In this document: positions 737 to 60,112 of the stretch, piece after piece | How positions within the stretch are numbered: position 1 is the stretch's first letter | How the letters are laid out: every line of letters starts with the position of its first letter | Origin: Thermoanaerobaculia bacterium | GTDB lineage: Bacteria; Acidobacteriota; Thermoanaerobaculia; UBA5066 | Length of the DNA: 64,000 nucleotides | Assembly (NCBI GenBank): GCA_963809425.1 | Contig: CAWEJK010000009.1 | Span: 77,228 to 141,227 of the forward strand | Direction of reading: 5' to 3' | Translations under genes and position numbers: made by a program | The notes under the pieces: model-generated | Told to the model about the DNA's origin: nothing | Seen by the model: the letters and a program-made list of their open reading frames with translations, nothing else | Database searches by the model: none

Positions 737-1966
737 TCAGCGCGCGCGGACGACCCAGGTGCCGGCCGCGAGGTCCTGAAGGGCCCTCTTGTCCTTTTCG
801 AAGAAGGCCAGGATCCACCCGAGGCCCAGCGGCAGTCCCGCGAGCACGAGGACGACCGCGCGGATCAGAGCCGCCTTCCAGCCGATGCCACGTCCCCCGA
901 TCTCCCCGCGTTTGACGACCGTGAGCCCGAGAAGGGACTTTCCGGGCGTGCGCCCGCGCCACGCCCAGCCTCCGACGACGTACAGCGCGTTCGCGAGCGC
1001 GGCAAGAAGGAACGAGAGGATCGTGATGCCTCGAAAGGCCCAGTCCGGAGCCGCGTCGCGCGTCTGGAGCTCCGCGCGGAAGTAGTCGATCAGGAAGACG
1101 GGAGCGAAGAGGAGCAGGTTGATCGCCGTGAGGATGACGGCGTCGACGAGAGCCGCGAGGAGGCGGGCGAACGGGTTCGCGGCGTTTCGCGGGCCCGCGT
1201 TCAACGCCGGCGCGCGCCGCTCGCGGAAGGCCGCCGCGCGTTCGACCGTCGCGATGCGCGGGGGCGCCTGGGACGAGTTCATCTGGATCGAGACGTCCGC
1301 CAGCTCGCGGGCCGCGGGCGCCGGCGGGAACGGCTCCGCGACCGCCGGGACGCCGTCGGATGGCGCGACGGTCGAGATCTCGTCCGGGGGCCGGAGCGCC
1401 GCCGGGAAGGCCTCGCGGAACCCGGAGCTCGGCCTGACCGGCGTGCCTTTCCGATCGACGTCGCGGAAGAGGTCGGAGGCCGACATTTCGTCGGGTGGAA
1501 CGACGACCGGCGGCGGCGGAACCCCCGGAAGCGTGCTGCCCGGAGCGGGCTCGTAGGTGATCGCGGACGGCTGCGGCGGCGCGGACGCCGCCGGCGCAAC
1601 GGGCGGCACCGCCGACCGCGGCGCCAGCGCCTCCGGCCCGAGGAGCGCGGTGCGCTCGGACGGCGCGTTCGGCGCCACGATGCGAAGGTCGATCACGGCC
1701 GCGCCGATCTGGATGCGATCCCCGCTCTGGAGACGCGTCTCGCGGGAAATCCTCTTGCCGCCCACGTAGGTGCCGTTCGAGGAGTTCAGGTCCTTGACGA
1801 TCGCCTCGCCGCTGTTGAGCGTGAGGAGAGCGTGCGAGCGCGAAACGGATTCGTGTTCGAGCCGAACGGTCGACGTCCGGCTGCGACCGAGCGTGGCCTC
1901 TCCATCCGAGAGGTCGATCTCGCGGCCCTCCACCGAGAGCACGTAGCGGTAGACCTCGGTCGTCAC
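737..1966 (-). CDS. FHA domain protein with C-terminal RDD membrane domain
   Basis: N-terminal FHA signature (LGRSRTSTVRLEHESVSRSHALL...SSNGTYVGGKRI). Pro-rich linker. C-terminal RDD-type TM domain (RLLAALVDAVIL...GRTPGKSLLGLTVV). GTG start overlaps the uvrA-like stop as GTGA (1963-1966). Confidence 0.85.
   Translation of the reverse strand: MTTEVYRYVLSVEGREIDLSDGEATLGRSRTSTVRLEHESVSRSHALLTLNSGEAIVKDLNSSNGTYVGGKRISRETRLQSGDRIQIGAAVIDLRIVAPNAPSERTALLGPEALAPRSAVPPVAPAASAPPQPSAITYEPAPGSTLPGVPPPPVVVPPDEMSASDLFRDVDRKGTPVRPSSGFREAFPAALRPPDEISTVAPSDGVPAVAEPFPPAPAARELADVSIQMNSSQAPPRIATVERAAAFRERRAPALNAGPRNAANPFARLLAALVDAVILTAINLLLFAPVFLIDYFRAELQTRDAAPDWAFRGITILSFLLAALANALYVVGGWAWRGRTPGKSLLGLTVVKRGEIGGRGIGWKAALIRAVVLVLAGLPLGLGWILAFFEKDKRALQDLAAGTWVVRAR
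784..809 (-). repeat. single copy of the TTCNNNGAA-core AT-rich repeat family, in frame in the FHA-RDD gene
   Basis: The + strand reads ccctcttgtccttttcgaagaaggc. It encodes AFFEKDKRA on the minus strand and matches the reverse consensus CCCTCTTCACCTTCTAAGAA. Confidence 0.5.
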
Positions 1967-3117
1967 GGTGACGGAAATTGTACCCGCCTCCGCAGCGCCG
2001 CGGCGGTCGGCGTGCCGCCGAGGGCGGCGAGAGCCCCGGGAGTCCCCGAAAACACGAGGCGCCCGCCGGCCGGACCCCCGTCGGGACCCAGTTCCACGAG
2101 GTAATCCGCGCGGGCCAGGAATGCCGTGTTGTGCTCCACGGCGACGATCGAATGGCCGGCCGCGATGAGGCGCCGGAGGACCGCGAGGAGCACGTCCACG
2201 TCGGAAGGCGCCAGCCCGGTCGTCGGCTCGTCGAAGATGAAGAGCGCCGGTTCGTCCGGGCCGCCGCTCCTCAGGAAGGACGCGATCTTCAACCGCTGCG
2301 CTTCACCGCCCGAGAGCGTCCCGGTGGACTGGCCGAGCGTGAGATAGCCGAGACCCGCTTCCGCGAGCGGCGCGAGCCGCTCGGCGATCGCGCGGACGTC
2401 GGCGAAGAGGTCGCGCGCCTCGTCCACCGTCGTGGCGAGAAGCTCGTCCACGTTTCGTCCGCGCAGGCGGACCTCGAGCACGACGGACTTGAATCGCCGC
2501 CCGTCGCAAACGTCGCACACGACCGTCACGTCGGCGAGGAACTGCATGTCCACCGTCACGACGCCGGCGCCCTCGCAACGCTCGCAGCGGCCGCCTTTCG
2601 CATTGAAGCTGAACGCTCCCTTCTCGAGGCGGCGCGCCTTCGCGGCGGGCGTGCGCGCGAGAAGCGTCCTGATCTCGTCCCATGCCTTCGTGTACGTGGC
2701 GGCATTCGAGCGCGAGGAGCGCCCGAGCGGCGACTGGTCCACGAGAATCACGTCCGAGACCCTCTCGAGACCCTCGATCGCGTCGTGCGAGCCGACCTCG
2801 TCCACGCCCGGGAGCACGCCCTTTCCCATCCGCTGCCGCGCGCCCGCGGCGAGGACGTCCACGACGAGCGAGGATTTTCCGGAGCCGGACACACCGGACA
2901 CCGCGACGAGCCTGTGGAGAGGGAAAGAGACGGAAATATTTTGAAGATTATTTGCTCGCGCACCCCGGATCAGGATCGATTCGACGGAGCTCAGTTGCAG
3001 ACTGGAAGAAGATATTTTCTTAGAAGGTGAAGAGGGGTCGGGGCGCGTCCTACCAGCCCGCGCACGACCAGCGACCGCGCCGATGCGCGCCGGCGGTTCG
3101 AGCGCGCTTTCGCTCAC
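1963..3117 (-). CDS. uvrA: UvrA-family ABC ATPase, C-terminal ABC module (separate frame from the N-terminal module)
   Basis: ILIRGARANNLQNISVSFPL, Walker A GVSGSGKSS, zinc motifs CERCEG and CDVCDG, signature LSGGEAQR, Walker B FIFDEPT. First plausible start after the N-module stop is GTG 3117. The frame stays open further upstream. Confidence 0.8.
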   Translation of the reverse strand: MSESALEPPARIGAVAGRARAGRTRPDPSSPSKKISSSSLQLSSVESILIRGARANNLQNISVSFPLHRLVAVSGVSGSGKSSLVVDVLAAGARQRMGKGVLPGVDEVGSHDAIEGLERVSDVILVDQSPLGRSSRSNAATYTKAWDEIRTLLARTPAAKARRLEKGAFSFNAKGGRCERCEGAGVVTVDMQFLADVTVVCDVCDGRRFKSVVLEVRLRGRNVDELLATTVDEARDLFADVRAIAERLAPLAEAGLGYLTLGQSTGTLSGGEAQRLKIASFLRSGGPDEPALFIFDEPTTGLAPSDVDVLLAVLRRLIAAGHSIVAVEHNTAFLARADYLVELGPDGGPAGGRLVFSGTPGALAALGGTPTAAALRRRVQFPSP

Positions 3118-3245
3118 ACCCCCTTCTAAGAAAGCGCCGAAGGCGCCCACCGTTTCGGCAGCCAGTGCGTGATTCGACGCAGTCGGCCCGTAACCGCCTG
3201 AGTCCGAAGCAAAGATCTTCTCTCCCTCTCCCTCTCCCTCTTCAG
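2931..3245. repeat. composite AT-rich repeat island at the uvrA-like module junction (copies at 2931-2955+, 3004-3037+, 3115-3138-, 3206-3245-)
   Basis: Copy A is ggaagaagatattttcttagaaggtgaagagggg. Copy B is cacacccccttctaagaaagcgcc. Copy C is gaagcaaagatcttctctccctctccctctccctcttcag. GC-rich filler lies between them. The TAG that ends the N-module ORF (3126-3128) lies inside copy B. Confidence 0.8.
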
Positions 3246-4997
3246 CGATCTGCCAGTCGCCGTGTCCTGTTCCTCCAGCTCCGCGGGCGAACCTTCGAAG
3301 ACGAGCCGGCCGCCTCTGGCGCCGGCGCCGGGGCCGAGGTCGATGACGTGGTCCGCGGCGCGGATCACGTCCGTGTCGTGCTCGACGGCGACGACCGCGT
3401 TGCCGCCCGCCGCGAGCCGCCGGATGACGCCGAGCAGCCGCTCGGTGTCGCGCGGATGGAGGCCGACGGTCGGCTCGTCGAGGACGTAGAGCGTTCCGGT
3501 GAGCGCGTTGCCGATGGCCGAGCCGAGCTGGATGCGTTGGGCTTCTCCGCCCGAGAGCGTGCGCATCGTGCGTGAGAGCGTGAGATAGGAGAGCCCGATC
3601 TCGACGAGCGTCGACACGCGGCGCCGGAGCTCGTCGACGAGCGACGCCCCCCGCGCGCGCTCTTCCGCGAGGGGAAGTGCGCCCTCGAGAAACACGAGCA
3701 GCTCGTCGAGCGTCAGGGCCGCGACCTCGGCGATCGTCTTTCCGGCCAGCGTGACCGCGAGCGCCTCCGGCTTGAGCCGCGCGCCCGCGCAGGCCGGGCA
3801 CGGCGTGTAGCCGCGATAGCGCGAGAGCAGCACGCGGACGTGCACCTTGTAGCGCTTCTTCTCGAGGTACTTGAAGAGCCCCTCGACGCCGTACCAGTCG
3901 CCCGCGCCTTTCCACACGACCTCGCGCTCGCGCGGGGTCAGCTCGTTCCAGGGCACGTTCCAGCGCACCTTGTTCCGCCGGGAGACCGCCCGCAGGTCGT
4001 CGTACGCGCTCTCGTAGGCGGGCGAATTGAACGGCGCGATCGGCCGCCCCGCGAGCGACTTTCGCGGGTCGGGAACGACGCGGGCCGGATCGATGCCCGC
4101 CACGCGCCCGAAGCCCTGGCAGGTCTCGCACGCGCCCCGCGGCGAGTTGAACGAGAAGAGGGCCGGCACGGGATCCGTGAAGCGCCGCGCGCAGGCGTCG
4201 CAGACGAGGCCGCGAAAAAAGCGGCGGGCGGAGGAAAGACCAGGACCCTCTCCGCTCCTCAATGCGAAGAGCTTCCCGTCACCGGAGTCGAATGCCATTG
4301 AAAGGGAAGAGAGAAGTTCCGGATCCGAAGAAGCGAGCACGTGGCGCCCGACGAGCAGCGGAAAGGCTCCAAGCGGCTCCGCCGCTTCCCTCATCTCTTT
4401 CTCATTCAAAGAAATTTCCAGTACGTGACCCAACGCACTGACATAGCGGAAGAAGCCCTGCCTTCTCCACTCCGCGCTCTCGGCGTCGAACGACTGGACC
4501 CTGCGCGGCGCGATCACGAGGATCCGCGCGCCCTCTCCCCATTCTGAAAGCAGGATTTCCCGTAGTCCTTCGACGGTGTGGCGCGTGACGAGTGTGCCGT
4601 CGTTCGGGCACCGAAGAGTCCCCGCCGCCGCGAACAGGAGCCGCAGGACGTCGTGGATCTCGGTCGCGGTCCCCACGGTGGACCGGGCCGAGCGTCCCGG
4701 CGCCTTCTGCTCGATCGCAAGCGCGGGCAGGACGTGCTCGATGAGGTCCACGTCGGGGCGCTCGAGGCGCTCGAGGTACTGCCGGGCGTACGTGGACATG
4801 GATTCGACGAACCGGCGCTGGCCCTCCGCGTAGAGCGTGTCGAAGGCGAGCGAGGATTTCCCGGAGCCCGAAGGGCCCGTGACGACGGTGAACGCGCCGA
4901 CGGGAAAAGAGCACGTCACGTTCTTCAGGTTGTGCGTACGCGCACGCACGACCGTGATCGAAGCGGCGCCCCGCACGGGCTCGGCCCGCCGCGTCAC
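3126..4997 (-). CDS. uvrA: UvrA-family ABC ATPase, N-terminal ABC module
   Basis: Walker A GPSGSGKSSLAFDTLYAEGQRRFVES, Cys motifs CDACARRF, CETCQGFG and CPACAGARL, signature LSGGEAQR, Walker B YVLDEPT. GTG start at 4997 overlaps the methyltransferase stop as GTGA. The ORF-track extension up to 5840 is a shadow frame over the methyltransferase. Confidence 0.8.
   Translation of the reverse strand: MTRRAEPVRGAASITVVRARTHNLKNVTCSFPVGAFTVVTGPSGSGKSSLAFDTLYAEGQRRFVESMSTYARQYLERLERPDVDLIEHVLPALAIEQKAPGRSARSTVGTATEIHDVLRLLFAAAGTLRCPNDGTLVTRHTVEGLREILLSEWGEGARILVIAPRRVQSFDAESAEWRRQGFFRYVSALGHVLEISLNEKEMREAAEPLGAFPLLVGRHVLASSDPELLSSLSMAFDSGDGKLFALRSGEGPGLSSARRFFRGLVCDACARRFTDPVPALFSFNSPRGACETCQGFGRVAGIDPARVVPDPRKSLAGRPIAPFNSPAYESAYDDLRAVSRRNKVRWNVPWNELTPREREVVWKGAGDWYGVEGLFKYLEKKRYKVHVRVLLSRYRGYTPCPACAGARLKPEALAVTLAGKTIAEVAALTLDELLVFLEGALPLAEERARGASLVDELRRRVSTLVEIGLSYLTLSRTMRTLSGGEAQRIQLGSAIGNALTGTLYVLDEPTVGLHPRDTERLLGVIRRLAAGGNAVVAVEHDTDVIRAADHVIDLGPGAGARGGRLVFEGSPAELEEQDTATGRSLKRERERERRSLLRTQAVTGRLRRITHWLPKRWAPSALS
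4295..4562. repeat. three copies of the AT-rich repeat family inside the uvrA-like N module (4295-4316+, 4385-4421-, 4531-4562-)
   Basis: Sequences are ccattgaaagggaagagagaag, cttccctcatctctttctcattcaaagaaatttccag and ccctctccccattctgaaagcaggatttcccg. All are in frame (SSLSMAF, EISLNEKEMREA, REILLSEWGEG). Confidence 0.6.
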
Positions 4998-5581
4998 CGC
5001 GAGAAGACCGCGAGCTGGTTCATGCCGAAGAGAAAGCGCCGGTACGCGACCGGGGAAAGGCCCGCCGCCCGCCCCGCCGTCTCGAGATCCTTGCGCGAGA
5101 GGAGACCTTCGTGCTCTTCGTGGGCGTGGGACGACAGGAGGCCGAGAGCGGCCCCGATCTCCAGCGCGAACCGTCCGTGCGGGTGCGGCGTCGTCGCAAT
5201 CACCCGGCCTCCCGGGGAAAGGAGAGGAGAAAGGCGGCAGAGAATCGCGGGGGGGTCGGCCGCGTGCTCGAGGACCGCGAGGAGGAGGATTGCCTCGAAT
5301 GGCGCCCTCGCCTGGAGCGCCGCCGGAGCCGCGTCTCGACCGATGTCCCATTCGAAGAAATCCCTGTTCGGGAATCTCTCCCGCTGCGCCCCGAGCACGT
5401 CCGGATTCCGGTCGCAGCCGACGTACGCAGGCAACCGCCCCGGAAGATCCGTCAGACCGCAGCCGACGTCGAGCACGCGCGCGCCAGCGGGCACGTGCGG
5501 CAGCGCGGCGGCGAGGCGGAACGCCCCGACGCGCCTCGTGAGCCGGCCATAAAAGGCCGGCGGCCGGGAATTCAAGGACAC
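4994..5581 (-). CDS. class I SAM-dependent methyltransferase
   Basis: Motif I VLDVGCGLTD, followed by LLAVLEH and LSPGGRVI. 195 aa. Translationally coupled to the uvrA-like gene. Confidence 0.85.
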   Translation of the reverse strand: MSLNSRPPAFYGRLTRRVGAFRLAAALPHVPAGARVLDVGCGLTDLPGRLPAYVGCDRNPDVLGAQRERFPNRDFFEWDIGRDAAPAALQARAPFEAILLLAVLEHAADPPAILCRLSPLLSPGGRVIATTPHPHGRFALEIGAALGLLSSHAHEEHEGLLSRKDLETAGRAAGLSPVAYRRFLFGMNQLAVFSR

Positions 5582-5610
5582 GCGGGGGTTTTACACCCTC
5601 CACCGTAAGA

Positions 5611-6105: not shown

Positions 6106-6133
6106 TCGACCGAGAGTCCGGGGGACACGAGAC

Positions 6134-10985: not shown

Positions 10986-10986
10986 A

Positions 10987-14766: not shown

Positions 14767-15861
14767 GTGGAAACGAGCCGCGAATCGGCGCGCGCCATCA
14801 CCCGCCGACTCGCGCGCTGGTACCGCGCGCACGGACGCTCCCTTCCGTGGCGCCGGACGCGCGACCCCTATGCGATCTGGCTCTCGGAGGTCATGGCGCA
14901 GCAGACGGCGATCGAGGTCGTGGTCCCGCGCTGGGAGCGCTTCCTGTCGCGCTTTCCGACCGTCGCGGCGCTCGCGCGCGCACCGGAGCGCGCGGTACTC
15001 GCCGAGTGGAGCGGTCTCGGCTATTACGCGCGCGCGCGGAATCTGCACCGCGCCGCGAAGGCCGTCGCGAGGGCGGGAGCGTTTCCGCGCACGTTCGAGG
15101 GCCTGAGGGCGCTTCCCGGCATCGGGGCGTACACGGCGGCCGCGGTCTCCTCGATCAGCTTCGGGATCCCCGAGCCCGCCGTGGACGGCAACGTCGTGCG
15201 CGTCCTCTGCCGTCTCCACGGCCTTCGCCTCGATCCGAAGACGCCCGCGACGCTCGCGAGAGTGCGCGCGCTCGCGCGGCCGCTCGTGCCCGCGCGGAGG
15301 CCCGGCGACCACAACCAGGCCGTCATGGAGCTCGGCGCCCTCGTGTGCACCCCGCGCGCGCCTCGCTGTGGCGCGTGCCCCCTGCGCGCGCTCTGCCGGG
15401 CCGCGGCGAGCGGGAAGCCGGAAGGCTTCCCGCGAAGGCCGCGCCGCCCGCAGCCGCGCGCGATTCATCTCGTTGCGGGCATCGTCGAAAGAAAGAAGAA
15501 GATTTTGCTCGTAGAAGACAAAGAGCTCGTGCCGGGACACCTCATCGTGCCTCTGTTTCGCACTCCTGCAGGGGAACGGCCTGCAAAGTTTCTTAGAAGG
15601 GGGTGGAAGCGGCTCACCGGCGGCACGGTCACCGCCGTATCGCGGGTAGCGACGCTTCGCCACTCGGTCCTCGATCGCCGCTATGTCGTCTCCCTCTTCA
15701 CCTTCAAAGAAAATCCACCGGCGCCCCTGCTTCCCCGCCCGCACGAAGCGGGCGGGATCCGTCTCCTCTCGTTTCGTCAGATTTCCCGGCAGGCTCACGG
15801 CGGCCTGCTGCTCAAAGTCCTCGCGGCCTGGCGTGCGCACCGCGCGCGCCAGGCCCGCTGA
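14767..15861 (+). CDS. mutY: A/G-specific adenine DNA glycosylase
   Basis: LPWRRTRDPYAIWLSEVMAQQT, helix-hairpin-helix LPGIGAYTAAAV, Fe-S cluster CTPRAPRCGACPLRALC, and a NUDIX-like C-terminal domain. GTG 14767 is preferred over ATG 14692, which overlaps the divergent gene. Confidence 0.85.
   Translation: METSRESARAITRRLARWYRAHGRSLPWRRTRDPYAIWLSEVMAQQTAIEVVVPRWERFLSRFPTVAALARAPERAVLAEWSGLGYYARARNLHRAAKAVARAGAFPRTFEGLRALPGIGAYTAAAVSSISFGIPEPAVDGNVVRVLCRLHGLRLDPKTPATLARVRALARPLVPARRPGDHNQAVMELGALVCTPRAPRCGACPLRALCRAAASGKPEGFPRRPRRPQPRAIHLVAGIVERKKKILLVEDKELVPGHLIVPLFRTPAGERPAKFLRRGWKRLTGGTVTAVSRVATLRHSVLDRRYVVSLFTFKENPPAPLLPRPHEAGGIRLLSFRQISRQAHGGLLLKVLAAWRAHRARQAR
15487..15719. repeat. three copies of the AT-rich repeat family in the mutY C-terminal domain (15487-15525+, 15583-15612+, 15691-15719-)
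   Basis: Sequences are gaaagaaagaagaagattttgctcgtagaagacaaagag, gcaaagtttcttagaagggggtggaagcgg and tccctcttcaccttcaaagaaaatccacc. They encode ERKKKILLVEDKE, AKFLRRGWKR and SLFTFKENPP. Confidence 0.8.
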
Positions 15862-20538: not shown

Positions 20539-20835
20539 ATGGCGAAGAACGCTTTCAATCAGATCGTTTCCGCTCTCCGGGGCGGAGCCTCGGAATTCGG
20601 CAGCCGAAAAGACGACACCGTGAAGCAGGTCGCAAGCTCCGTCGGCCGCATCCTCGACGAGGCCGGAACCGAAGGCGCGAAGATCAAGAAGACGCTCGTC
20701 CGCAACTGGACCTCGCTGGAACGGCCGCGCCGCAGCCGCACCGTTCCCATCCTCTTCGGCGTGCTCGGTATGGGAATCGCCGCGGCCTACCTGCTCAGCC
20801 GCGGCGCGGCGAGTTCTCCGCCCTCGGGCGGCTGA
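20539..20835 (+). CDS. hypothetical tail-anchored membrane protein
   Basis: GGAAGGAG lies upstream of the ATG. 98 aa with a C-terminal TM segment (VPILFGVLGMGIAAAYLL). Confidence 0.55.
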   Translation: MAKNAFNQIVSALRGGASEFGSRKDDTVKQVASSVGRILDEAGTEGAKIKKTLVRNWTSLERPRRSRTVPILFGVLGMGIAAAYLLSRGAASSPPSGG

Positions 20836-22355
20836 TCCGTTCTGAGACCCCCGGGACGGCCTTCCTTCTCGAACCACGCCGTTGCCCCGAGGAGGTGGAA
20901 CGCCGCTCCGCTCGCACCCACGCCGACGCCGACGGAGAGGCCGCCCTTCCGGATCAGGAGCGCTCCCCATCTGCGGCGACGCGTTTCGCGGTAGTCGCCG
21001 GCCAGGAGGAACGTGCCCGCCTCCAGGTTCGCTTTCGAGATCGTGAGACGGCCCGGCGTGCGAACGACGCGGCCCTCCGCCTCAAGGTCGCGAAGGTCGA
21101 AGAGCCCCGCCAGCCACTTCGGCGGGCCGGGGGGCAGAAGGGCCACGAGCGGACGGCCATCCCGAAGGCGGGCGACGACCCGCGCGTCGAACGATCCGTC
21201 TCGAAGGTGGAGACGCGCGGCTGGCGTCGCGAACGTTCCGTCCCAGGACTCTCCCGCCGCGCCGTCCAGCGAGAAATCCGAGAGCGCGACGTTCGTCCCT
21301 GCGAAGGAAACAGAGCCTTCGTGAAAATCGATCGCGCGCGCCCTCACGGCCGCGCGCCCGGAGCCGCGGAAGGTCCGCCGCCCTGCGCGCGCTGTGAACC
21401 GCCGGGCGTCGGCATCGACACGCGCGCGCCCCCGCCCGCCGTCGAGCACGGCGCCGACCCGGGCGGACCCGACCCCGCCCGCGATGCGCAGGCCGTCGCC
21501 GTCGGCTGACAGGAAGTCGAGGCCCTGGAGGGTGCCGCGCACGGCGGCCATGCCGGACATCAGCTTCCACACTTCGTTGCCCGGGTAGTCCTGCGTCTCG
21601 AAACGCGGCAGCGCGGCGCGCACGGCTCCCCGGGTTTCGCGGGAGATCACCTGCTCGCCGAACCGGAGGATCCCGCCGGCGACGGAGAGTTCGCTGGGAA
21701 GAACCTCGGCCCGACGGCCCGGCAGCAGGTCGAATCCTCCCTCGAGGCGCGCCGATCCCGCCCAGCGCCAGGAGTCGATCCAGATCTCCCTGACGACGCC
21801 GACGGCAAGATCGTTCACGACGACGCGCCACGGGTTTCCCGGGTCCGCGGGAGGCGCCGGCGGGTCCCGGAGCGGCGGTTCGGCGAACCCGGCGATGCCG
21901 GGATATCGCGCGAGCCGGGCGGGTATCGCTTCGGACCGCTCGAGACGTTCCCGAAGGCGGAACGACAGGGCGTTCGCGCGCACGGAGTCCGCCCGGAAAC
22001 GGCGCCTCGGAAGATCGGACAGACGTACGCGCACCGACACTCCCTCGAGCCGTGCCTCCCATTCGATGTTCGAATCCCGGCTGCGGACGAGGAGCGTGTC
22101 GAATCGGAGGCTCCCGGGCACGAGCGATCGCGCGCCCGTGAAGGAGACGAAGAGCGCCGCGGGGTCCGAGTTGATGCGCCCCAGGAGCCAGTCCGACCGC
22201 AGGACGAGATTCGTCGCGCCGACGACGGAAACGAGCACGAAACAAAGGGTCACGAGACCGAGGGCGGCCTGACGCGGACTCGGCCGCCAGGCGCCGAAGC
22301 CCGGAGCGGGCCGCGCCCCGATACCGGCAGTCTTTTCCGGTTTCGCCAGTTTCAT
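20787..22355 (-). CDS. hypothetical membrane-anchored protein with a large extracytoplasmic domain
   Basis: Start at MKLAKPEK. One N-terminal TM segment (LGLVTLCFVLVSVVGATNLVL). About 500 aa with normal composition and no family recognised. Confidence 0.6.
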   Translation of the reverse strand: MKLAKPEKTAGIGARPAPGFGAWRPSPRQAALGLVTLCFVLVSVVGATNLVLRSDWLLGRINSDPAALFVSFTGARSLVPGSLRFDTLLVRSRDSNIEWEARLEGVSVRVRLSDLPRRRFRADSVRANALSFRLRERLERSEAIPARLARYPGIAGFAEPPLRDPPAPPADPGNPWRVVVNDLAVGVVREIWIDSWRWAGSARLEGGFDLLPGRRAEVLPSELSVAGGILRFGEQVISRETRGAVRAALPRFETQDYPGNEVWKLMSGMAAVRGTLQGLDFLSADGDGLRIAGGVGSARVGAVLDGGRGRARVDADARRFTARAGRRTFRGSGRAAVRARAIDFHEGSVSFAGTNVALSDFSLDGAAGESWDGTFATPAARLHLRDGSFDARVVARLRDGRPLVALLPPGPPKWLAGLFDLRDLEAEGRVVRTPGRLTISKANLEAGTFLLAGDYRETRRRRWGALLIRKGGLSVGVGVGASGAAFHLLGATAWFEKEGRPGGLRTDQPPEGGELAAPRLSR

Positions 22356-40703: not shown

Positions 40704-41830
40704 TTCGGATCGTCCGAGGAAGAAGAAGAGGAAGATTTCCTAGAAAGGTAAGAGAGCCGGAGATCTCCCTTCACCACTTTTCCGTATGGGGTGCGCGGGA
40801 GCGAGTCCACGAAGACGAAATCGCGGGGGACCTTGTAGCGCGCGAGCCGCCCCTCGACGAACGCCGCCAGTTCGGCCTTCTCTCCCTCTCTCTCTCTTAC
40901 TTTCAAAGAAATCTTCTCTTCTCCCCTCTTTTCCTCTCGGCGAACCACGAAAGCCACGCCGACCTCGCCCCACTTCTCGTCCGGCACCCCGACGACCGCG
41001 ACGTCCTTCACTCCCGGGTGCTGGAAGAGGACCCCCTCGATCTCGGCCGGGTAGACGTTGACGCCTCCCGAAATGAGCATGTCTTTCTTGCGCCCGGCGA
41101 TCGTGAAGAAACCGTCCGCGTCCTTCTTCGCGAGGTCGCCCGTGTGGAACCAGCCCCCGGCGTCGAGCGAGGCCGCCGTGGCCTCCGGGTTCCGGTAGTA
41201 GCCCTTGCAGACGTGGGGCCCCTTGAGGAGGAGCTCGCCGACCTCGCCGACCGGCACCTCGCGCCCGTCCTCTCCCGTCAGCTTCGCCTCGGTGAACATC
41301 ATCGGCCGGCCGATCGAGCCGGCCTTCCGCACCGAGTCCGCGAGGCTCATCGCGAAACAGTTCACGCCGACCTCCGTGAGGCCGTAGCCCTGCTTGAACG
41401 CCGCGCCGCGCTTCTGCCAGGTCTCGATGATGTCGAGCGGCAGCGGCGCGCCTCCGCTGATGAAGTAGCGGACGCTCGAGAAGTCGGCCGACGCCCACGC
41501 GGGGTCCTCCTGGAGCATGCGGAAGATCGTCGGCACGCCGAGGATCACCGTGCAGCGCTCCTTGCCGATCGTCGCGAGGATCTCGGCCGGGTCGAAGCCC
41601 GCGAAGAGGACGATCGTCCCGCCCACGGCGAAGATCGGCGTCAGGAACGCGCCCAGCCCGCCCGCGTGGTAGAGCGGCGTGTAGACGGGCGACACGTCGT
41701 CCTCGCGAAGCTGCCACGAGACGACCGTGTTCACGGCGTTCCACGCGACCATCCGGTGCGGCACCATCACGCCCTTCGGCTTGCCGGTCGTGCCCGACGT
41801 GTACAGCAGGCAGTAGAGGTCTTCGGGACC
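40700..41830 (-). CDS. AMP-dependent acyl-CoA synthetase/ligase, C-terminal fragment (frame c)
   Basis: PEDLYCLLYTSGTTGKPKGVMVPH, YHAGGL, GYGLTE, WFHTGDL, and YKVPRDFVFVDSLPRTPYGKV. The first M in the track ORF is at 41770, but the frame is open to about 41830. Confidence 0.8.
   Translation of the reverse strand, partial: GPEDLYCLLYTSGTTGKPKGVMVPHRMVAWNAVNTVVSWQLREDDVSPVYTPLYHAGGLGAFLTPIFAVGGTIVLFAGFDPAEILATIGKERCTVILGVPTIFRMLQEDPAWASADFSSVRYFISGGAPLPLDIIETWQKRGAAFKQGYGLTEVGVNCFAMSLADSVRKAGSIGRPMMFTEAKLTGEDGREVPVGEVGELLLKGPHVCKGYYRNPEATAASLDAGGWFHTGDLAKKDADGFFTIAGRKKDMLISGGVNVYPAEIEGVLFQHPGVKDVAVVGVPDEKWGEVGVAFVVRREEKRGEEKISLKVREREGEKAELAAFVEGRLARYKVPRDFVFVDSLPRTPYGKVVKGDLRLSYLSRKSSSSSSSDDPK
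40716..40938. repeat. convergent pair of the AT-rich repeat family flanking the last conserved acyl-CoA ligase motif (40716-40758+, 40877-40938-)
   Basis: aagatttcctagaaaggtaagagag (40732-40756) matches the reverse complement of 40892-40915 (aagatttctttgaaagtaagagag). The copies encode the tail LSYLSRKSSSSSSSDDPK* and REEKRGEEKISLKVREREGEK. Confidence 0.8.
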
Positions 41831-42101
41831 AGGAGAAGAGGAGATTTCTGCAGCGGCGGCCGTACGGCGCCGCTGGAAGAGGAGAGAAAGAGAAGAGAAG
41901 ATTTCTGAGAAGGGGAAGAGGGCCCGCGCGCGCCTTCGGGCGGTCGCGGTTGGCGCGGCCGGCGAGCTCGCGGGCTTCGCCTTTCCGCTCTCCGACCCCT
42001 TCTAAGCACGTCCTCTTCGGACCTTCCAGATGGCGCCGAAGGAGCCTGTCGAGCGGCACGCCCTGACAGTTCCTTTCCCCTCTTAAGCAGATATTTCGCG
42101 G
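41831..42101. repeat. composite AT-rich repeat island disrupting the acyl-CoA ligase (copies at 41831-41853+, 41875-41924+, 41988-42020-, 42067-42101-)
   Basis: Direct repeats gagaagaggagatttctg and gagaagagaagatttctg flank the hairpin cagcggcggccgtacggcgccgctg (41851-41875). The inverted partners are ccccttctaagcacg and cccctcttaagcagatatttc. The gene changes frame twice in this interval. Confidence 0.75.
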
Positions 42102-42441
42102 TCTCTTCGAACCCTGCCCCATAGATCAGAGCCTTCGGCTCGGCGTCCGAAACAACACCTTCCAGCTCCCCCGCCGTCTGCCGCGTATTCAACGGGACGA
42201 GGACGACGCCCGTCTTGCCGCACGCGAAGAAGACGTCGAGGAATTCGACGCGGTTGCGGGCGAGGAGGGCCAGGCGGTCGCCCTTCTTGAGGCCGAGGCC
42301 CTCGACGAGAGCGCGGGCCGCGGCCCGCGCGCGCGCGTCCAGCTCGGCGTACGTGAAACGGCGGCCGGTCGCGACCTCGACGAGCGCCGTCTTCTCCGGC
42401 GAGAGGCGCGCGCGTTCGCCGAGGACGTCGCCCGAGATCAC
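42100..42441 (-). CDS. AMP-dependent acyl-CoA synthetase/ligase, N-terminal fragment (frame a)
   Basis: ISGDVLGERARLSPEKTALVE...TYAELDARARAAARALVEGLGLKKGDRLALLARNRVEFLDVFFACGKTGVVLVPLNTR...ALIYGAGFEET. Downstream of about 42100 the track ORF 41767..42441 is Arg/Pro-rich noise. Confidence 0.75.
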
Positions 42442-48063: not shown

Positions 48064-48064
48064 G

Positions 48065-48091: not shown

Positions 48092-48102
48092 TTCGGGGAG
48101 GC

Positions 48103-50837: not shown

Positions 50838-50887
50838 CGGACAGCTTCTCCTTCGTGGCCCTTCGCGAGGGCCTCGGCCCGAGCCTA

Positions 50888-51880
50888 TCAGGAGGTGGCG
50901 AGCACGAGGCGTCTCTCGCGGGATGCCGCGGCGGCGAGCGCCACGCCGATCCCCGCGAGCGACGCGAGACCCCAGACGAGAGGTCCCGCGTAAGGGACGA
51001 GAGAGGCAAGGCCGAGGAGCAGGAGGCCGGCCGCGAGCGCCGCCGGATCGCCGAAGAGAAGGTCGCCGCGCGTCGCGCCGCGCGTGACGCGGCGGCCCAG
51101 CGCGACGAAGAGCGCCGCGAGACCGAACACCTTTGCCGCGGCGAGCGCGCCGAGCAGCGCGACGCCGAGGACGAGCGCGAATCGGGCCGGCAGAACGGAC
51201 AGCGCGAACGCCGCGAGGAAGACCGCGGTCAGAACCGCGGTCGCTCCGAGCGCGGCGAGGAACGCGAAGCGGCCCCGCAAGCCGTCCGCGGCCCGGAGGA
51301 GGAGGCGGGGCGCGAGGAAGAGCAGACAAAAAGAGACGACGAGCCACGCGAAGAGGAGAAAGAGCCGGAACGAAAGGACGAGAGGCGAGGTCCTGCCGGA
51401 GGTCAGCGGCGAGGTTTCGAGCTCGGAAAGGACCGCCGCCTCGAGCGCCGAGATCGTCCGGACGCGTCCGCCGACCTGCGGATGGCTTCGCGCGGACGCG
51501 GGGATCGAAGAGGTCGAGGAAGAGGAAGAGGAACCGGAGGGATTTTCTGAGAAGGTCAGAGAACCGCCGACCGAGAGGACATCGCCATCGATGATTGCGC
51601 CCCGCTCGATCGTCGCGCTCGCGCCGAGAAGGATGAGATCGCGGTGAATGCGGCCCGACACGACCGCCGAGCCTCCTCCAACGAGGACCGCGCTCCCTCC
51701 CAATTCACCCTCTAAGAGAATCCCCCTTCCGAGAACCACGACATCCCCGGCTCGAATCGTCCCTTTCGGAATGGAAATCGATTCTTCGGCCTCGGCGTTC
51801 GCGCGGAGCGCGAACGCGCCTCCGAGCAGAAAAAGAAAGAGGGGAATCGCCCGCCTGGCTCTCGCGGTCGCGCCGCTCAC
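50888..51880 (-). CDS. membrane protein with bactofilin-like beta-helical (polymer-forming) periplasmic domain
   Basis: Signal/anchor segment, repetitive G-x-V/I-x-G strands ([40 protein letters not shown]...), a poly-Ser linker, and about 5 TM segments. Confidence 0.65.
51506..51733. repeat. convergent pair of the AT-rich repeat family in the bactofilin-like gene (51506-51564+, 51693-51733-)
   Basis: Sequences are cgaagaggtcgaggaagaggaagaggaaccggagggattttctgagaaggtcagagaacc and ctccctcccaattcaccctctaagagaatcccccttccgag. They encode [19 protein letters not shown] and [13 protein letters not shown]. Confidence 0.7.
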
Positions 51881-51889
51881 GCTCGCCCT

Positions 51890-52417: not shown

Positions 52418-52427
52418 CCTGATCCCT

Positions 52428-53009: not shown

Positions 53010-53089
53010 GATGAGATCGTGTCATATGAACCCGCTTGGGAATGCCTAGAATACCCAGTTGGCCAATGGTTCCCATGAAGGAGGATTCC

Positions 53090-54394
<1,305 letters not shown>

Positions 54395-54403
54395 GATCCG
54401 CAT

Positions 54404-56784: not shown

Positions 56785-56890
56785 CCTTTCTAAGAAGATT
56801 TTCCTTGAAGGGCGAATGAGCGACGCGCTCGCGAGCGATGCTTCGGCGCGCTCTGCCGCTCTTCTCTTCACCTTCTAAGCAGAATTCGTC
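56783..56890. repeat. intergenic inverted pair of the AT-rich repeat family between convergent genes
   Basis: Arm gattttccttgaagggcgaatgagcg (56798-56823) pairs with the reverse complement of 56858-56890 (gacgaattctgcttagaaggtgaagagaagagc). A GC-rich spacer lies between the arms. An extra overlapping reverse core cctttctaagaag lies at 56786-56798. Confidence 0.75.
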
Positions 56891-56940
56891 TCGTTCGGAC
56901 GTTACGAATTGCCCGGAGCGCACACGCGATGCCCGGGCGT

Positions 56941-57852
56941 TCAGGAAACGGCGTGCAGCGGCGGCTCGCCGCGCGCGAAGCGCGCGATCTCCTCGCACGC
57001 GAGGCGCGCCATCGCGAGGCGCGTCTCGTGCGTCGCGGAGCCGAGGTGCGGGAGCAGGACGACGTTCGGCAGCGCGACAAGTCCGGGGTGGATCGCGGGC
57101 TCCTTCTCGAAGACGTCGAGTCCCGCGCCGAAGAGATGCTTCGAAGCGAGAGCTGCCGCGAGAGCGGCTTCGTCGACGATGGGACCCCGCGCGGTGTTGA
57201 CGAGGATGGCTCCCTCTTTCATTCTCAGAAACTCTTCTTCTCCGAACCTCCCGCGCGTTTCGTCGGTCAGCGGCGCGTGGATCGACAGCACGTCGACTTT
57301 CGAAAGAAATTCCCCGAATTCCTCTTCTCTCCGGTTCTTGTCGAAAGCCAGCACCTTCATCCCGAACGCCTCGCCGCGGCGCGCGACGGCGCGGCCGATG
57401 CGGCCCATGCCGTAAATCCCGAGCGTCTTCCCCTGAAGCGACACGCCGAGGAGCTCCTGCGGCTTCCAGCCGTCCCACGTCCCGGAGCGGGCAAGCGCAT
57501 CGCCTTCGTGCAGCCGCCGCGACACCCCGAGAATCAGGGCCCACGCGAGGTCCGCCGTCGCGTCCGTCAGAACGTCCGGCGTGTTCGTCACGAGGATCCC
57601 GCGGGCACGGCACGCGGCGAGGTCGATGTGGTCGACGCCCACCGAGTGGCTCGCCACGAGCCCGAGGCCGGGCGCGGCCGCGAGAACGTCCTCGGTGACG
57701 CGTTCGCGCGGCGTGGGAAGAAGAGCCCGCACGGTCGCGAGGCGCGGCCACTCGGGGGCCGGCAACCCCCCGGCGCCGACGGTGACGTCGTGTCCGGAGA
57801 GGATCTCCGTCGTGGAGGGCTCGACGAGGGGTCTCCCGACGAAGATCCTCAC
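56941..57852 (-). CDS. D-isomer-specific 2-hydroxyacid dehydrogenase (glyoxylate/hydroxypyruvate reductase-like)
   Basis: GIYGMGRIGRAVARR, MKEGAILVNTARG, LPHLGSAT. GTG 57852 is in a GTGA overlap with the small upstream ORF. Confidence 0.9.
   Translation of the reverse strand: MRIFVGRPLVEPSTTEILSGHDVTVGAGGLPAPEWPRLATVRALLPTPRERVTEDVLAAAPGLGLVASHSVGVDHIDLAACRARGILVTNTPDVLTDATADLAWALILGVSRRLHEGDALARSGTWDGWKPQELLGVSLQGKTLGIYGMGRIGRAVARRGEAFGMKVLAFDKNRREEEFGEFLSKVDVLSIHAPLTDETRGRFGEEEFLRMKEGAILVNTARGPIVDEAALAAALASKHLFGAGLDVFEKEPAIHPGLVALPNVVLLPHLGSATHETRLAMARLACEEIARFARGEPPLHAVS
57209..57334. repeat. two copies of the AT-rich repeat family in the 2-hydroxyacid dehydrogenase gene (57209-57248-, 57295-57334-)
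   Basis: Sequences are gctccctctttcattctcagaaactcttcttctccgaacc and gactttcgaaagaaattccccgaattcctcttctctccgg. They encode FGEEEFLRMKEGA and NRREEEFGEFLSKV. Confidence 0.6.
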
Positions 57853-58022
57853 GGCGCCTTGAACGGGCGCACGAGAGCCCAGCCGGCGAAGAAGACGCCG
57901 CCCCCCGCGAAGAACATGCGCTCCTCGTAGCGGAGGTCGTTTCTCAGAAGTCCGATGGCGAGACCCAGACCCACGAGCACGAGGCCGATGAGCTGAAGAC
58001 CTCGCCCGAACGCGAACCTCAC
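57849..58022 (-). CDS. small two-TM membrane protein (57 aa), translationally coupled on both sides
   Basis: Absent from the ORF track. Starts at GTG and reads (M)RFAFGRGLQLIGLVLVGLGLAIGLLRNDLRYEERMFFAGGGVFFAGWALVRPFKAP*. GTGA overlaps occur at both ends (58019-58022 and 57849-57852). Confidence 0.5.
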   Translation of the reverse strand: MRFAFGRGLQLIGLVLVGLGLAIGLLRNDLRYEERMFFAGGGVFFAGWALVRPFKAP

Positions 58023-60112
58023 GGCACCGCTCCGGCAGGCCTCGCTTCACGCGGGCGGGACGTCACGCGCACGGACACGAGACGGTCGTTCTGCTCGATG
58101 CGGTCGAGGACCTCGACCCCTTCGAGGACGCGTCCGAAAACCGTGTACCCGCCGTCGAGATGCCGCTGCGGCGAGAGAGCGATGAACCACTGCGACCCGC
58201 CCGTGTCCGGCCCCGACAGCGCCATCCCCACGCTTCCCCGGGCGTAACGCACCGCGTTGATTTCGTCGGGAATCGCGTGACCCGGCCCCCCGTTACCATC
58301 CCCGCGCGGATCGCCGGTCTGCACGACGAAGTCGGGCACGACGCGATGGATCAGGAGTCCGTCGAAGAAACGCCTTGCGGCGAGCGCGCGAAAACTCTCG
58401 ACTGTCATCGGGGCTTCCTCGGCGAGAAGCTCCATGCGAATCGCACCCCTGGACGTCACGATCTCCGCCTCGAAGACCGACTCGTTCGCCGCGCGCGCGA
58501 GCCGGTCGTAGTCGACCCGCGAGAGCCGTGTCGCGGCCGGAATCGGCCGGAACGAATCCGGTGCGACGCCGTACTTCTCCACGAGCAGCCGCCTGGCTTT
58601 CTCCCGCGCCACGTCATTCGCGTCGTTCCCGTGAGAGGAGACGAGGGCGCGGCCGGCCTCGCCCCGCGCGGCCGCGGCGTCGAGCGCGCCGACCGAGAAG
58701 TCCGGCTCGCCGGACTCGAACGCGCGGTCGAACGCCGCCGTCCAGGCGCGCCTCAGCTCCGCACCTCCCTGCTCCAGGAGCGGCGCGGCCGCTTCGAGCG
58801 CCACGTCCCGCACGGCCGGGTCGTGGTCCACCAGGCCGGCCAGCAGATACGCCGAACGCTTCGGAGAGTCCCGCTTGGAAAGGGAAGAGAGGGCCGCGGC
58901 GCGAATTCGCGCGGCCGGGTCGGAATGAAGCGCCTTCGCCGCTTGCTCCTTCGCGGGGCTCTCCTCTTCCAGAAATTCCAGCGCTTCCGAAGCGCCCAGC
59001 CTCAGCTCGAGCGAATCGCTCGCGGATGCCGCATCGAGCCGCGCCGCCGCGGCTTCCGGCGACCGCGCCGCGTCGAGGCGCGTCAGGCTCACGATGGCCG
59101 TCTGCCCTCGCCACCCCTTTCGAAGCAGGTTCTCTTCGAGCACCGAACGCGACTCCGGCGAGTCGGGCAATACCCCGAGCAGACGGAGAGCGGCGATCGC
59201 CACCCCGGGAAGGGGATCGTTTGCTCGGAGAAGAGCGACGTCCCTCGCGCTTCGGGCGACGTCGTCGTTTCGGGAAAGGGCGCCTTTCTTAGAAAGTGAA
59301 TCGAGCGCGGTCAGGGCCTGCACGGAAACCGAGATGTCTCGGCTCGCGGCGAGGCGGATGAGATCCGGAGCGCTCTCTTCGTCCCCGAGCAACCCCGCCG
59401 CGCGGGCCGCCCACGAAACGACGACCTCTTCGTCGATTCCCCTTCTAAGCACGGCGCGAAGCGCCGAAACGGCCGCGGGATCCGGTTTCCGTGACAGGGA
59501 ATAGACGATCGCTCTCCTGAGCTCCGGAGCAGAAGAATCTTCTCCGAACGCGGCGAGCAGAGCCTCCACGGTCCGCGCCTCCGGCTTGCGGAACAGAGCG
59601 AGCGCGCTCGCGGCGCGCGTCGACCCGGCTGTCTCGCGCCTCGCGAGCGACGCGAGGAGCGCGTCCGTCGCGTCCTTCCCGCCGATCTTCCCGAGAGCTT
59701 CGGCCGCGTTCGCCGCCGTTTCCATGTCGGGATCGCCGAGGGCGACGGCGAGGAACCGAACGAGGCGCGCGTCGCCGGAGACCCCCGCCCCGAACGCGGC
59801 CGCGCGCCTGACGCCCGCGTCCGGATCCTTGAGGAGGACCGGCAGGTAGAGCGCGGCGTCGGGATCCCGGAGCCTTCCCGCGGCGAGCGCCGTCTTCGCG
59901 CGCAGCCAGGGATCGGGCGAGACCGCCGCGCGCCCCGTGAGGAGCGGGTCGTAGGCACGGCGATCCTCCATGCGGAGGAGTCCGGCGTATCCGCCGAGGC
60001 GTTCGCGATAGGTGCCCTTCGGGGAGCCCTTTTCCGGGCCGAACGAGATACAGCCGGAGAGGGAGAGGGCGGCGAGGACGGCGGCGAACGCGCGACGGTC
60101 GCGGTGCGACAT
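58019..60112 (-). CDS. lipoprotein with HEAT-repeat region fused to a cyclophilin-type peptidyl-prolyl isomerase
   Basis: Lipobox LSLSGC. Repeated DP(D/A)..VR..A units. C-terminal cyclophilin domain FHRVVPDFVVQTGDP...GSVGMA...SQWFI...GYTVFGRV. Confidence 0.85.
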   Translation of the reverse strand: MSHRDRRAFAAVLAALSLSGCISFGPEKGSPKGTYRERLGGYAGLLRMEDRRAYDPLLTGRAAVSPDPWLRAKTALAAGRLRDPDAALYLPVLLKDPDAGVRRAAAFGAGVSGDARLVRFLAVALGDPDMETAANAAEALGKIGGKDATDALLASLARRETAGSTRAASALALFRKPEARTVEALLAAFGEDSSAPELRRAIVYSLSRKPDPAAVSALRAVLRRGIDEEVVVSWAARAAGLLGDEESAPDLIRLAASRDISVSVQALTALDSLSKKGALSRNDDVARSARDVALLRANDPLPGVAIAALRLLGVLPDSPESRSVLEENLLRKGWRGQTAIVSLTRLDAARSPEAAAARLDAASASDSLELRLGASEALEFLEEESPAKEQAAKALHSDPAARIRAAALSSLSKRDSPKRSAYLLAGLVDHDPAVRDVALEAAAPLLEQGGAELRRAWTAAFDRAFESGEPDFSVGALDAAAARGEAGRALVSSHGNDANDVAREKARRLLVEKYGVAPDSFRPIPAATRLSRVDYDRLARAANESVFEAEIVTSRGAIRMELLAEEAPMTVESFRALAARRFFDGLLIHRVVPDFVVQTGDPRGDGNGGPGHAIPDEINAVRYARGSVGMALSGPDTGGSQWFIALSPQRHLDGGYTVFGRVLEGVEVLDRIEQNDRLVSVRVTSRPREARPAGAVP
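58870..59550. repeat. seven copies of the AT-rich repeat family in the HEAT-repeat region (58870-58895+, 58957-58988-, 59102-59141-, 59217-59242+, 59272-59305+, 59425-59457-, 59527-59550-)
   Basis: Examples are cgcctttcttagaaagtgaatc, attccccttctaagcacggcgc and ccacccctttcgaagcaggttctcttcgag. Encoded peptides are SLSKKGA, VLRRGIDEE, ENLLRKGWRG, SLSKRDS and EFLEEES. Confidence 0.7.

Follow-up and report, generated by a model that had tools for sequence, protein, structure and literature searches.

A clade-specific family of facing, AT-rich motifs inside the genes of a high-GC Thermoanaerobaculia lineage

A 64,000-nt stretch of the genome of a Thermoanaerobaculia bacterium (contig CAWEJK010000009.1, positions 77,228 to 141,227; hereafter the window), a member of a high-GC soil Acidobacteria lineage, carries a 14-nt AT-rich motif that is placed inside genes and occurs as facing pairs, although the window has a GC content of about 70% throughout. 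Each copy, or arm, is comprised of an AT-rich core of about 14 nt (GATTTCTNAGAAGG) within purine-rich flanks. The consensus is directional and reads (GA-rich) GATTTCTNAGAAGG (T/G)GAAGAG (GA-rich), centred on a TTC-N3-GAA quasi-palindrome. Arms on the + strand are called forward (F) and those on the - strand reverse (R), and an F arm with the R arm that faces it forms a unit. The family is real, clade-specific and vertically inherited, and its two-fold-symmetric, two-arm motifs lie in genes. Purifying selection, or some equivalent drive that is still acting, maintains the family at the level of nucleotides and not of peptides; most of it has been written in place rather than transposed as a unit. 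The observation is genuine and unusual, and the family is best filed as an intragenic variant of paired repeats resembling those of the REP (repetitive extragenic palindromic) and REPIN type.

A first-pass annotation of the window had proposed that a directional motif is dispersed over it far above chance, and this is borne out. The 12-mer TTTCTTAGAAGG, with up to two mismatches allowed, has 26 matches against 1.09 expected, the maximum in 100 dinucleotide-preserving shuffles of the window being 6. Among 20-nt windows with a GC content of at most 40%, a large share of the AT-rich islands bear the directional consensus. An arm profile (nhmmer) built from 18 clear copies finds 18 matches of at least 10 bits and 23 of at least 6 bits. 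When weak and degenerate arms read by eye are added the total is about 29; the overall number is about 23-29, and the figure of about 36 copies given earlier was too high. Long shared strings were recovered as described: the 17-mer TTTCTTAGAAGGGGGTG at 15589-15605 (+) and 3117-3133 (-), and the 16-mer CTTAGAAGGTGAAGAG at 3019-3034 (+) and 56864-56879 (-), with a one-mismatch copy at 15694-15709 (-). The likeness of a '24-25-mer' at 40732-40756 to 40892-40915 holds, but not its exactness, as the alignment has 22 identities, 2 mismatches and 1 gap and a longest exact run of 9 nt. Some cores are perfect palindromes, e.g. the 13-nt CTTTCTTAGAAAG at 59283-59295. The density is about one unit per 5-6 kb. 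A generic repeat finder run over the whole window was dominated by GC-rich chance matches and missed the family.

The elements are present in independent Illumina (JGI, megahit) and long-read assemblies of relatives and are therefore not an assembly artefact. Their distribution was compared at the proS loci of 80 species-representative genomes and in two metagenome contigs, grouped by the identity of the prolyl-tRNA synthetase (ProRS) to that of the window. The homologues of the window ProRS assign the stretch to uncultured Acidobacteriota of the class Thermoanaerobaculia. At 80% identity or more, 28 loci (464 kb) contain 103 matches of at least 10 bits, or 2.22 per 10 kb. Six loci at 76-79% identity (86 kb) contain one such match (0.12 per 10 kb), and 47 loci under 60% identity (796 kb) contain none. 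The three groups have equal GC content, so that the absence of the motif from the distant relatives is a stronger control than shuffling and makes the family a signature of one lineage. The boundary between motif-positive and motif-negative genomes is sharp and lies between about 79% and 80% ProRS identity; with sister lineages on its two sides, phylogenetic profiling is directly usable. A public metagenome search with the 17-mer, which had been recommended, gave 64 matches; most were low-GC chance matches and about nine came from the clade, outside which the 17-mer is rare in metagenomes. Two viral scans gave only single, low-GC chance matches, and a phage origin was rejected. The literature held nothing relevant on the motif strings or on repeats in Thermoanaerobaculia.

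Within the clade, the density at the same syntenic locus differs several-fold, from 0.5 to 3.7 matches per 10 kb (L022, L023, L024; L016, L033), the ProRS of L022, L023 and L024 being 80-83% identical to that of the window. The deepest branches hold the oldest sites only, namely the proS 3' arm, the pair in a GT2 glycosyltransferase gene and the N-terminal pair of an acyl-CoA ligase gene. The density differences and the sites of the deepest branches suggest a stepwise accumulation early in the lineage.

The arrangement of the arms follows a strict rule. Eleven convergent pairs had been listed in the window, and nine of these are robust (cores at 3016/3133, 15589/15712, 30981/~31100, 35864/35935, 40736/40911, 41902/42009, 51544/51719, 56800/56882 and 59285/59452), the other two, 4303/4414 and 58878/58975, being weak. 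The core-to-core distance of the window pairs is 59-175 nt. In 528 kb of clade DNA, neighbouring matches within 400 nt of each other are oriented forward-to-reverse in 38 cases, reverse-to-forward in none and forward-forward in two. A slightly lower threshold gives 44 (within 260 nt), none and two, respectively; many of these clade pairs are orthologous copies and not independent, while the 9-11 pairs of the window are. The spacings in the clade are 47-201 nt, the arms facing each other across about 50-200 nt of ordinary host sequence. Facing arms make the unit two-fold symmetric, with the purine-rich arm first on either strand. No forward-to-reverse pair was found at a distance of 260-3500 nt in 0.57 Mb of clade DNA, and a full-length element is thus not in evidence. 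The 11 units of the window have spacers without mutual similarity, and an all-against-all blastn-short comparison matches the arms only, over 23 nt at most.

The same few orthologous positions are occupied across about 25 species (GT2 residues ~72-120, ProRS 336/348, ligase 288/336), and lineage-specific gains are few. In a codon alignment of proS from 25 species, the mean AT content at third codon positions (AT3) is 0.105, and the two arms are the top two outliers of the gene, at 0.80 and 0.65. The arm codons are held (ATT in 24 of 25 species, CTT in 20-23 of 25, also AGA, GAA and AAT), while neighbouring codons vary freely at synonymous sites, which places the constraint at the nucleotide level. 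The proS F arm is conserved in all 27 relatives compared, and all 27 orthologous proS units, from independent assemblies, have one orientation. The proS genes of L023 and L024 have the 3' arm only, and a lone proS arm is conserved throughout L022-L024; single arms thus exist and are conserved.

The host genes, identified from a codon-model gene map with Pfam and PDB comparisons, encode UvrA, MutY, the GT2 glycosyltransferase, ProRS, the acyl-CoA ligase, a protein without a Pfam match, a 2-hydroxyacid dehydrogenase and a HEAT/cyclophilin protein. The label 'bactofilin-like', which had been given to the gene at 50888-51880, could not be confirmed. The gene is one of two sizeable open reading frames (ORFs) without a Pfam match at E up to 1e-5 (50888-51880, 330 aa; 20787-22355, 522 aa). 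An apparent concentration of copies in repair genes carries no evidential value with only 11 units. As reported earlier, nearly all copies lie within ORFs, except for one intergenic pair (56790-56895) that sits between two convergent genes. The matches show neither preference for coding DNA nor avoidance of it: called genes account for 107 of 124, the coding fraction being 0.916, and most of the others are in genes missed by the crude gene caller. The arms use codon phases 0, 1 and 2, sense and antisense, and the encoded peptides are unrelated; the repeated object is therefore a nucleic acid and not a protein. Rare-codon pause clusters and a protein-level repeat are ruled out by the same use of three phases and both strands.

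Many arms arose in place. Those of proS are formed by ordinary conserved ProRS sequence (SEEILRKVTG ... LLPFAENP) and show no indel against 120 homologues or against outgroup DNA, the outgroups using GC-rich codons there. The two arms of the 2-hydroxyacid dehydrogenase gene lie over conserved motifs without an indel relative to PDB 2cuk. The GT2 F arm was formed by substitution, again without an indel (HYLSKKSPGP in the window, FLVKRPAGP in outgroups). That genuine host motifs lie between paired arms holds for ProRS and the acyl-CoA ligase. Other arms are found in linkers whose length is hypervariable: insertions bear one arm each of the GT2 and ligase genes, and in the ligase N-terminal region a tandem duplication of about 100 nt of host sequence adds an arm. 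UvrA orthologues (P0121-P0200) range from 948 to 1056 aa within the clade because whole F-spacer-R units, sometimes nested, come and go in two linkers, one after 'VLEI' in the N-terminal half and one between the two ABC halves. Traces of arm peptides (EEKISSKVK, SFEENP, HSPSKKI) recur in these linkers. The uvrA gene of L084 (10500-10730) has a 111-nt in-frame F-spacer-R unit that is absent from the window and from L085.

The first-pass annotation had also proposed that each pair could fold as a long-loop hairpin. This is physically possible, and the arms pair in the minimum-free-energy fold of six of eight units, with z-scores of -0.2 to -2.5. Within-pair complementarity is, however, no higher than that between pairs (-29.1 against -28.1 kcal/mol), and identical strings are longer between units (16-17 nt) than between the two arms of a unit. 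RNAalifold gives -2.77 kcal/mol and no compensatory pairs for 27 proS units. A 14-bp arm pairing is 86.8% paired, a value reached in 67 of 500 shuffles (86.2 ± 0.4%); one of its pairs is lost in 15 of 27 sequences, with no change that compensates, and six of nine single changes in the proS core keep the pairing through G-U. The complementarity of the arms is about 68% over 33 nt in 54 units, and G-U and A-C mismatches are about equally frequent (91 against 89), giving no sense-strand bias. These tests indicate that each arm is kept close to the consensus independently of its partner. The arms can pair, but it is not demonstrable that selection maintains the pairing, and a function specific to sense mRNA is unlikely.

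The reading preferred here, tentatively and at somewhat less than even likelihood, is that the islands form a clade-specific, vertically inherited and selection-maintained two-arm cis-signal of REPIN-like architecture, intragenic in position and served by a putative reader. The family appeared at the base of one Thermoanaerobaculia lineage and was then inherited at fixed orthologous positions; most arms were written in place, where permissive codons were substituted or expandable linkers grew. A single consensus whatever the frame, together with conserved single arms, points to a trans-acting, sequence-specific reader of each arm. The two-fold symmetry and the strict purine-first polarity suggest that the unit may act alike in the two directions, whether as duplex DNA or as a single strand of either polarity.

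It is the inverted arms, palindromic cores and variable spacers that lead the family to be read as an intragenic REPIN-like system. REP doublets have an inverted orientation and spacers highly variable in length and sequence (PMC3337134). REPINs and BIMEs (bacterial interspersed mosaic elements) likewise have short arms with an imperfect palindromic core, here TTC-N3-GAA, set in inverted pairs with spacers that vary in length and sequence, and they are lineage-specific, vertically inherited and long-lived (PMC3337134); hundreds of copies per genome are expected in the present case. In contrast to the family described here, REPs are extragenic, GC-rich hairpins that are transposed and associated with the RAYT transposase. 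The units are about 90% intragenic (10 of 11 in the window) and have AT-rich cores, many arms arose in place without an indel, and the spacers encode conserved host protein.

Several points weigh against the preferred reading. No reader protein has been found. Apart from an IS110-family transposase (DEDD_Tnp_IS110/Transposase_20) at 21317-22222 of L085, some 8 kb downstream of uvrA, which has no counterpart in the window and no association with arms, neither a RAYT (Y1 HUH) nor another transposase was seen among the 40 window genes or in the annotated loci L001-L003, L084 and L085. A Pfam scan of the same 40 genes agrees with the earlier statement that the window lacks a transposase, recombinase or reverse transcriptase. 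REPs and REPINs lie outside genes and are spread by transposition, whereas the present units are mostly intragenic and often written in place. The hairpin, which is central to REPINs, has modest z-scores and no support from covariation here. The spacer length changes among orthologues in 3-nt steps, so that helical phase is not kept, and this counts against a rigid, protein-mediated looping of duplex DNA. A simple protein-binding model also leaves the purine-first order unexplained, and this strict polarity is the least explained feature of the family.

A related possibility, though a doubtful one, is that the units are a host-written, selection-maintained and two-fold-symmetric punctuation mark in coding DNA, with about a thousand sites per genome and a clade-specific reader. 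The factor would, for example, stop or process untranslated or antisense transcription, confine R-loops or organise the nucleoid. If true, the synonymous sites of essential genes would be under the constraint of a host signal throughout an entire bacterial lineage.

It is unlikely, on balance, that structure in RNA or single-stranded DNA is the main role, with any transcript that runs across a unit, from either side, folding so that its purine-rich arm is paired to the pyrimidine-rich arm downstream. Such a hairpin would shield the C/U-rich arm from Rho, restrict R-loops, or lead to attenuation or processing of RNA that is untranslated or antisense, and translating ribosomes would melt it on the sense strand. 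The exclusive purine-then-pyrimidine order (44 against 0) is that of bidirectional terminators and is hard to explain by duplex binding. The freedom of spacer length and phase, the pairing in most folds, the ability of any forward arm to pair with any reverse arm at about -28 kcal/mol, and the G-U tolerance of the proS core agree with such a role. Bidirectional terminators similarly enclose a GC-rich segment between an upstream purine-rich and a downstream pyrimidine-rich tract and look the same from both strands, and the one intergenic unit, which lies between convergent genes, has a small GC hairpin before its pyrimidine arm. Against this stand the modest z-scores, the 68% complementarity, the absence of compensatory changes and the balance of G-U and A-C mismatches, and neither the common arm sequence nor the conserved single arms would be explained. 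There is no compact GC stem followed by a U-tract; terminator-like sites in 40-60 kb number 11 against 11.0 expected, with one touching a unit; and 10 of 11 units are in genes that require read-through. Matches to promoter and terminator consensus are at chance level, and these candidates were rejected. Rfam gave no match at gathering score over the whole window and only chance-level matches at E up to 5 over 40.6-42.2 kb, and a scan for tRNA-like elements found none. Nevertheless, the purine-first order is the polarity of a bidirectional terminator, and a purine arm could mask the C/U-rich arm once transcribed, so that a role at the transcript level stays alive despite the lack of covariation.

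Two further explanations are about equally improbable. The first is a 'self' signal of the DNA-uptake or Chi type, formed by point mutation and biased uptake or repair (molecular drive), with pairs providing both orientations at each locus. Like the DNA uptake sequences (DUS) of Neisseria and the uptake signal sequences (USS) of Pasteurellaceae, the family is lineage-specific and over-represented, accumulates in place in coding DNA in any frame, and persists at orthologous positions. Cyanobacterial HIP1 is likewise lineage-specific, over-represented and accumulated in place within coding regions, mostly as single copies. The indifference to coding status, the origin by substitution at permissive codons, the density and the conserved single arms are all in keeping with a signal of this kind, and DNA uptake sequences do occur within genes (PMC2346458). 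In contrast to DUS and USS, which are mostly single and in either orientation, and to Chi sites, which are mostly single too, nearly all copies here are partnered, in only one of the two possible inverted arrangements (44 against 0). The motif, with 14 nt and its flanks, is much longer than Chi. This clade gives no evidence of competence, nor of a tie between the motif and competence or methylation. The sites are mostly ancient and recent gains are few, which is unlike a continuing drive.

The second supposes decayed, in-frame elements resembling MITEs (miniature transposable elements with inverted repeats) or the palindromic elements of Rickettsia (RPEs): arm-spacer-arm units would have been inserted into permissive loops in the stem lineage, their interiors then diverging. 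In-frame MITE insertions are known in Rickettsia, and RPEs are elements of about 150 bp that are homologous over their full length, inserted as units and encode a conserved peptide (PMC10969869). As with RPEs, palindromic repeats are here tolerated in frame at permissive positions of unrelated housekeeping genes. Some whole units are present or absent among orthologues, such as that of L084 uvrA, the UvrA linkers vary by nested units, and GT2 and ligase arms lie within insertions. The likeness to RPEs suggested by the first-pass annotation nonetheless fails. Only the arms are shared, in three frames and on both strands, no conserved element-encoded peptide was found among the window arms, and many arms arose by substitution. 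The spacers are dissimilar even between strong units, and in proS, at the C-terminus of the ligase and in the 2-hydroxyacid dehydrogenase they encode conserved host protein without an indel against outgroups. Ancestral host sequence, with no insertion, lies between the arms of several pairs. What looks like an insertion in the N-terminal region of the ligase is host sequence duplicated in tandem, together with an arm. No target-site duplication is visible, although none was searched for systematically, and neither an autonomous partner among the window genes nor a long forward-to-reverse pair in 0.57 Mb of clade DNA was found. The copies of proS, of the 2-hydroxyacid dehydrogenase and of one GT2 arm are thus not insertions relative to their orthologues, while the linker units of UvrA and GT2 do vary by indel. 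Unrelated spacers and in-place arms mean that insertion of a classical MITE or RPE does not describe the family, as the earlier annotation had concluded for an arm-cargo-arm MITE; linker units still expand and contract.

A functionless mutational by-product is very improbable. In this case slippage in GA-rich DNA would act together with ectopic gene conversion or template switching between roughly a thousand short repeats, so that similar sequences would come to bear the motif and inverted partners would be made. A patch-like replacement is indeed seen at the proS 5' arm, where 13 of 18 nt differ between L023 and the ingroup with the flanks unchanged, and GA-rich, microsatellite-like flanks, tandem duplications and the long strings shared between units fit such a process. 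The AT-ending codons have, however, long been retained at the same sites in about 25 species against a genome-wide GC3 (GC at third codon positions) near 0.9. Arms within a unit are no more alike than arms of different units, which argues against templating within units, and the strict polarity is unexplained. Intragenic invertons, in which a master invertase would flip the enclosed segment and so recode or switch off genes, are scarcely credible: a common inverted-repeat consensus does enclose 60-190 nt at many loci, but simulated inversion puts stop codons into five of eight units and would destroy the GTRPGFVGP segment of the essential ProRS, the 27 orthologous proS units are uniform in orientation, and the window has no invertase gene, so that recoding invertons are ruled out by the simulation and the orthologues.

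If the preferred two-arm cis-signal holds, a REPIN-like repeat family can live almost wholly inside the genes of a 70%-GC genome and can arise largely by codon rewriting, not insertion. Constraint at the nucleotide level would last while orthologous proteins diverge by 10-20%, and essential genes, proS and uvrA among them, would carry a second code overlapping that for protein.

The uvrA and acyl-CoA ligase genes of the window each change frame next to an arm. The uvrA reading frame changes in a (GAGAGG)3 run (3190-3245, -) just upstream of a degenerate arm, and the upstream frame ends at the TAG of an arm core (3126-3128). At least 55 UvrA orthologues are intact single ORFs that read through the arms. 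In the ligase gene (41870-42105, -), the distance from GAGFEE to YTSGTTG is 338 nt (mod 3 = 2) in the window and in the long-read metagenome-assembled genome (MAG) L034, and 231 nt in the Illumina assembly L001, whose orthologue is an intact ORF through the arms. In the window a G is added in AGAAGGGGT; the shift of L034 lies at another homopolymer, AAAAGGGG. With intact orthologues, shifts located in the (GAGAGG)3 run and a G-run, and L034 shifted elsewhere, the frameshifts of the window are taken as probable assembly errors or recent lesions and not as recoding. A programmed -1 frameshift or translational bypass at the TAG- or TGA-bearing cores was rejected on the same grounds, and split genes with re-initiation were rejected since no start codon follows the TAG. 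In practice, the purine-rich, homopolymer-bearing arms coincide with the only frame-shifted genes of the window and also inflate the length variation of proteins such as UvrA, effects that bear on MAG annotation and pseudogene calls.

The arms of the window are listed in Table 1.

Table 1. Arms of the motif family in the window, with strand and the basis of each assignment (bits, score against the arm profile).
Positions	Strand	Feature	Basis
3003-3046	+	F arm, UvrA inter-domain linker; exact core TTTCTTAGAAGG at 3016-3027	21.9 bits
3105-3145	-	R arm, partner of 3003-3046; its TAG ends the upstream uvrA frame in this assembly	17.7 bits
3195-3240	-	Degenerate extra arm GAGAAGATCTTTGCTTCGGAC after (GAGAGG)3; uvrA frame shift here	By eye; orthologues intact
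4291-4318	+	Weak F arm CATTGAAAGGGAAGAGAG, UvrA N-terminal half; gene strand encodes LLSSLSMAF	Read from sequence
4386-4427	-	R arm, partner of 4291-4318; encodes LEISLNEKEM	14.7 bits
5344-5373	-	Single weak copy in methyltransferase gene (NRDFFEWD); may be chance	11.6 bits
15578-15618	+	F arm, MutY C-terminal domain	17.2 bits
15685-15723	-	R arm, partner of 15578-15618 (mutY)	21.0 bits
30971-31008	+	F arm, GT2 glycosyltransferase; in-place origin	19.9 bits; orthologue alignment
31072-31116	-	Weak R arm KRESEKSEEKISG, hypervariable GT2 linker	Sequence, orthologue alignment
35850-35894	+	F arm, proS; gene strand encodes LLPFAENP	17.2 bits; kept in 27/27 relatives
35905-35937	-	R arm, proS; encodes EEILRKV via ATT CTT CGA/AGA AAG GTA	8.9 bits; AT3 outlier
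40725-40764	+	F arm, C-terminal tail of acyl-CoA ligase	16.1 bits
40886-40925	-	R arm, acyl-CoA ligase; within 13-aa insertion relative to PDB 8weu	Profile match, PDB alignment
41895-41931	+	F arm, acyl-CoA ligase N-terminal region	18.4 bits
41989-42025	-	R arm in ~100-nt tandem duplication absent from L001; extra G after core shifts frame	Profile match, orthologue comparison
42074-42102	-	Degenerate older arm GCTTAAGAGGGG, orthologous to L001 arm 236-272	Sequence, orthologue comparison
51536-51572	+	F arm in gene without Pfam match ('bactofilin-like' label not confirmed)	18.0 bits
51690-51736	-	R arm, partner of 51536-51572	17.0 bits
56785-56828	+	Intergenic F arm and overlapping extra core 56786-56798, directly after ABC_tran_2 gene stop codon	17.8 bits
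56854-56895	-	Intergenic R arm; unit between convergent genes	16.5 bits
57133-57155	+	Possible degenerate partner arm; reverse complement reads GAAGAGATGCTTCGAAGCGAG	By eye; weak
57202-57243	-	Arm, 2-hydroxyacid dehydrogenase (EEEFLRMKEG); in place, no indel	11.8 bits; PDB 2cuk alignment
57290-57326	-	Second same-orientation arm, 2-hydroxyacid dehydrogenase (GEFLSKVD); in-place origin	Sequence, PDB 2cuk alignment
58868-58895	+	Weak F arm, HEAT-repeat/cyclophilin gene	6.5 bits
58957-58985	-	Weak R arm, partner of 58868-58895	Read from sequence
59268-59314	+	F arm, HEAT-repeat/cyclophilin gene; perfect 13-nt palindrome CTTTCTTAGAAAG	23.8 bits
59424-59466	-	R arm, partner of 59268-59314	15.4 bits

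Three loci (57133-57326, 2990-3240 and 41895-42102) have the order F-F-R on the gene strand instead of a simple pair; these could be nested or alternative partners, or relics of duplication. Many arms are bordered at their outer side by GA-rich, microsatellite-like runs such as GAAGAAGAAGAGGAAGA, GAGAGAAAGAGAAGAGAAGA and (GAGAGG)3 (positions 40717-40735, 41877-41900, 51506-51535 and 3222-3240). The runs differ in length between orthologues, which suggests slippage. In units 3016/3133 and 15589/15712, the arm that comes first in the mRNA is of a 'GGGGGTG' subtype and the second of a 'GGTGAAGAG' subtype, and each arm is a better match to its counterpart in the other gene than to its own partner. 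This may hint at a left/right asymmetry of the arms relative to transcription, in two units only, the others having no clear pattern. A perfect palindrome of 14 nt, GCGCGAATTCGCGC, which is GC-rich and includes an EcoRI site, lies at 58899-58912 in the spacer of the weak HEAT-gene unit.

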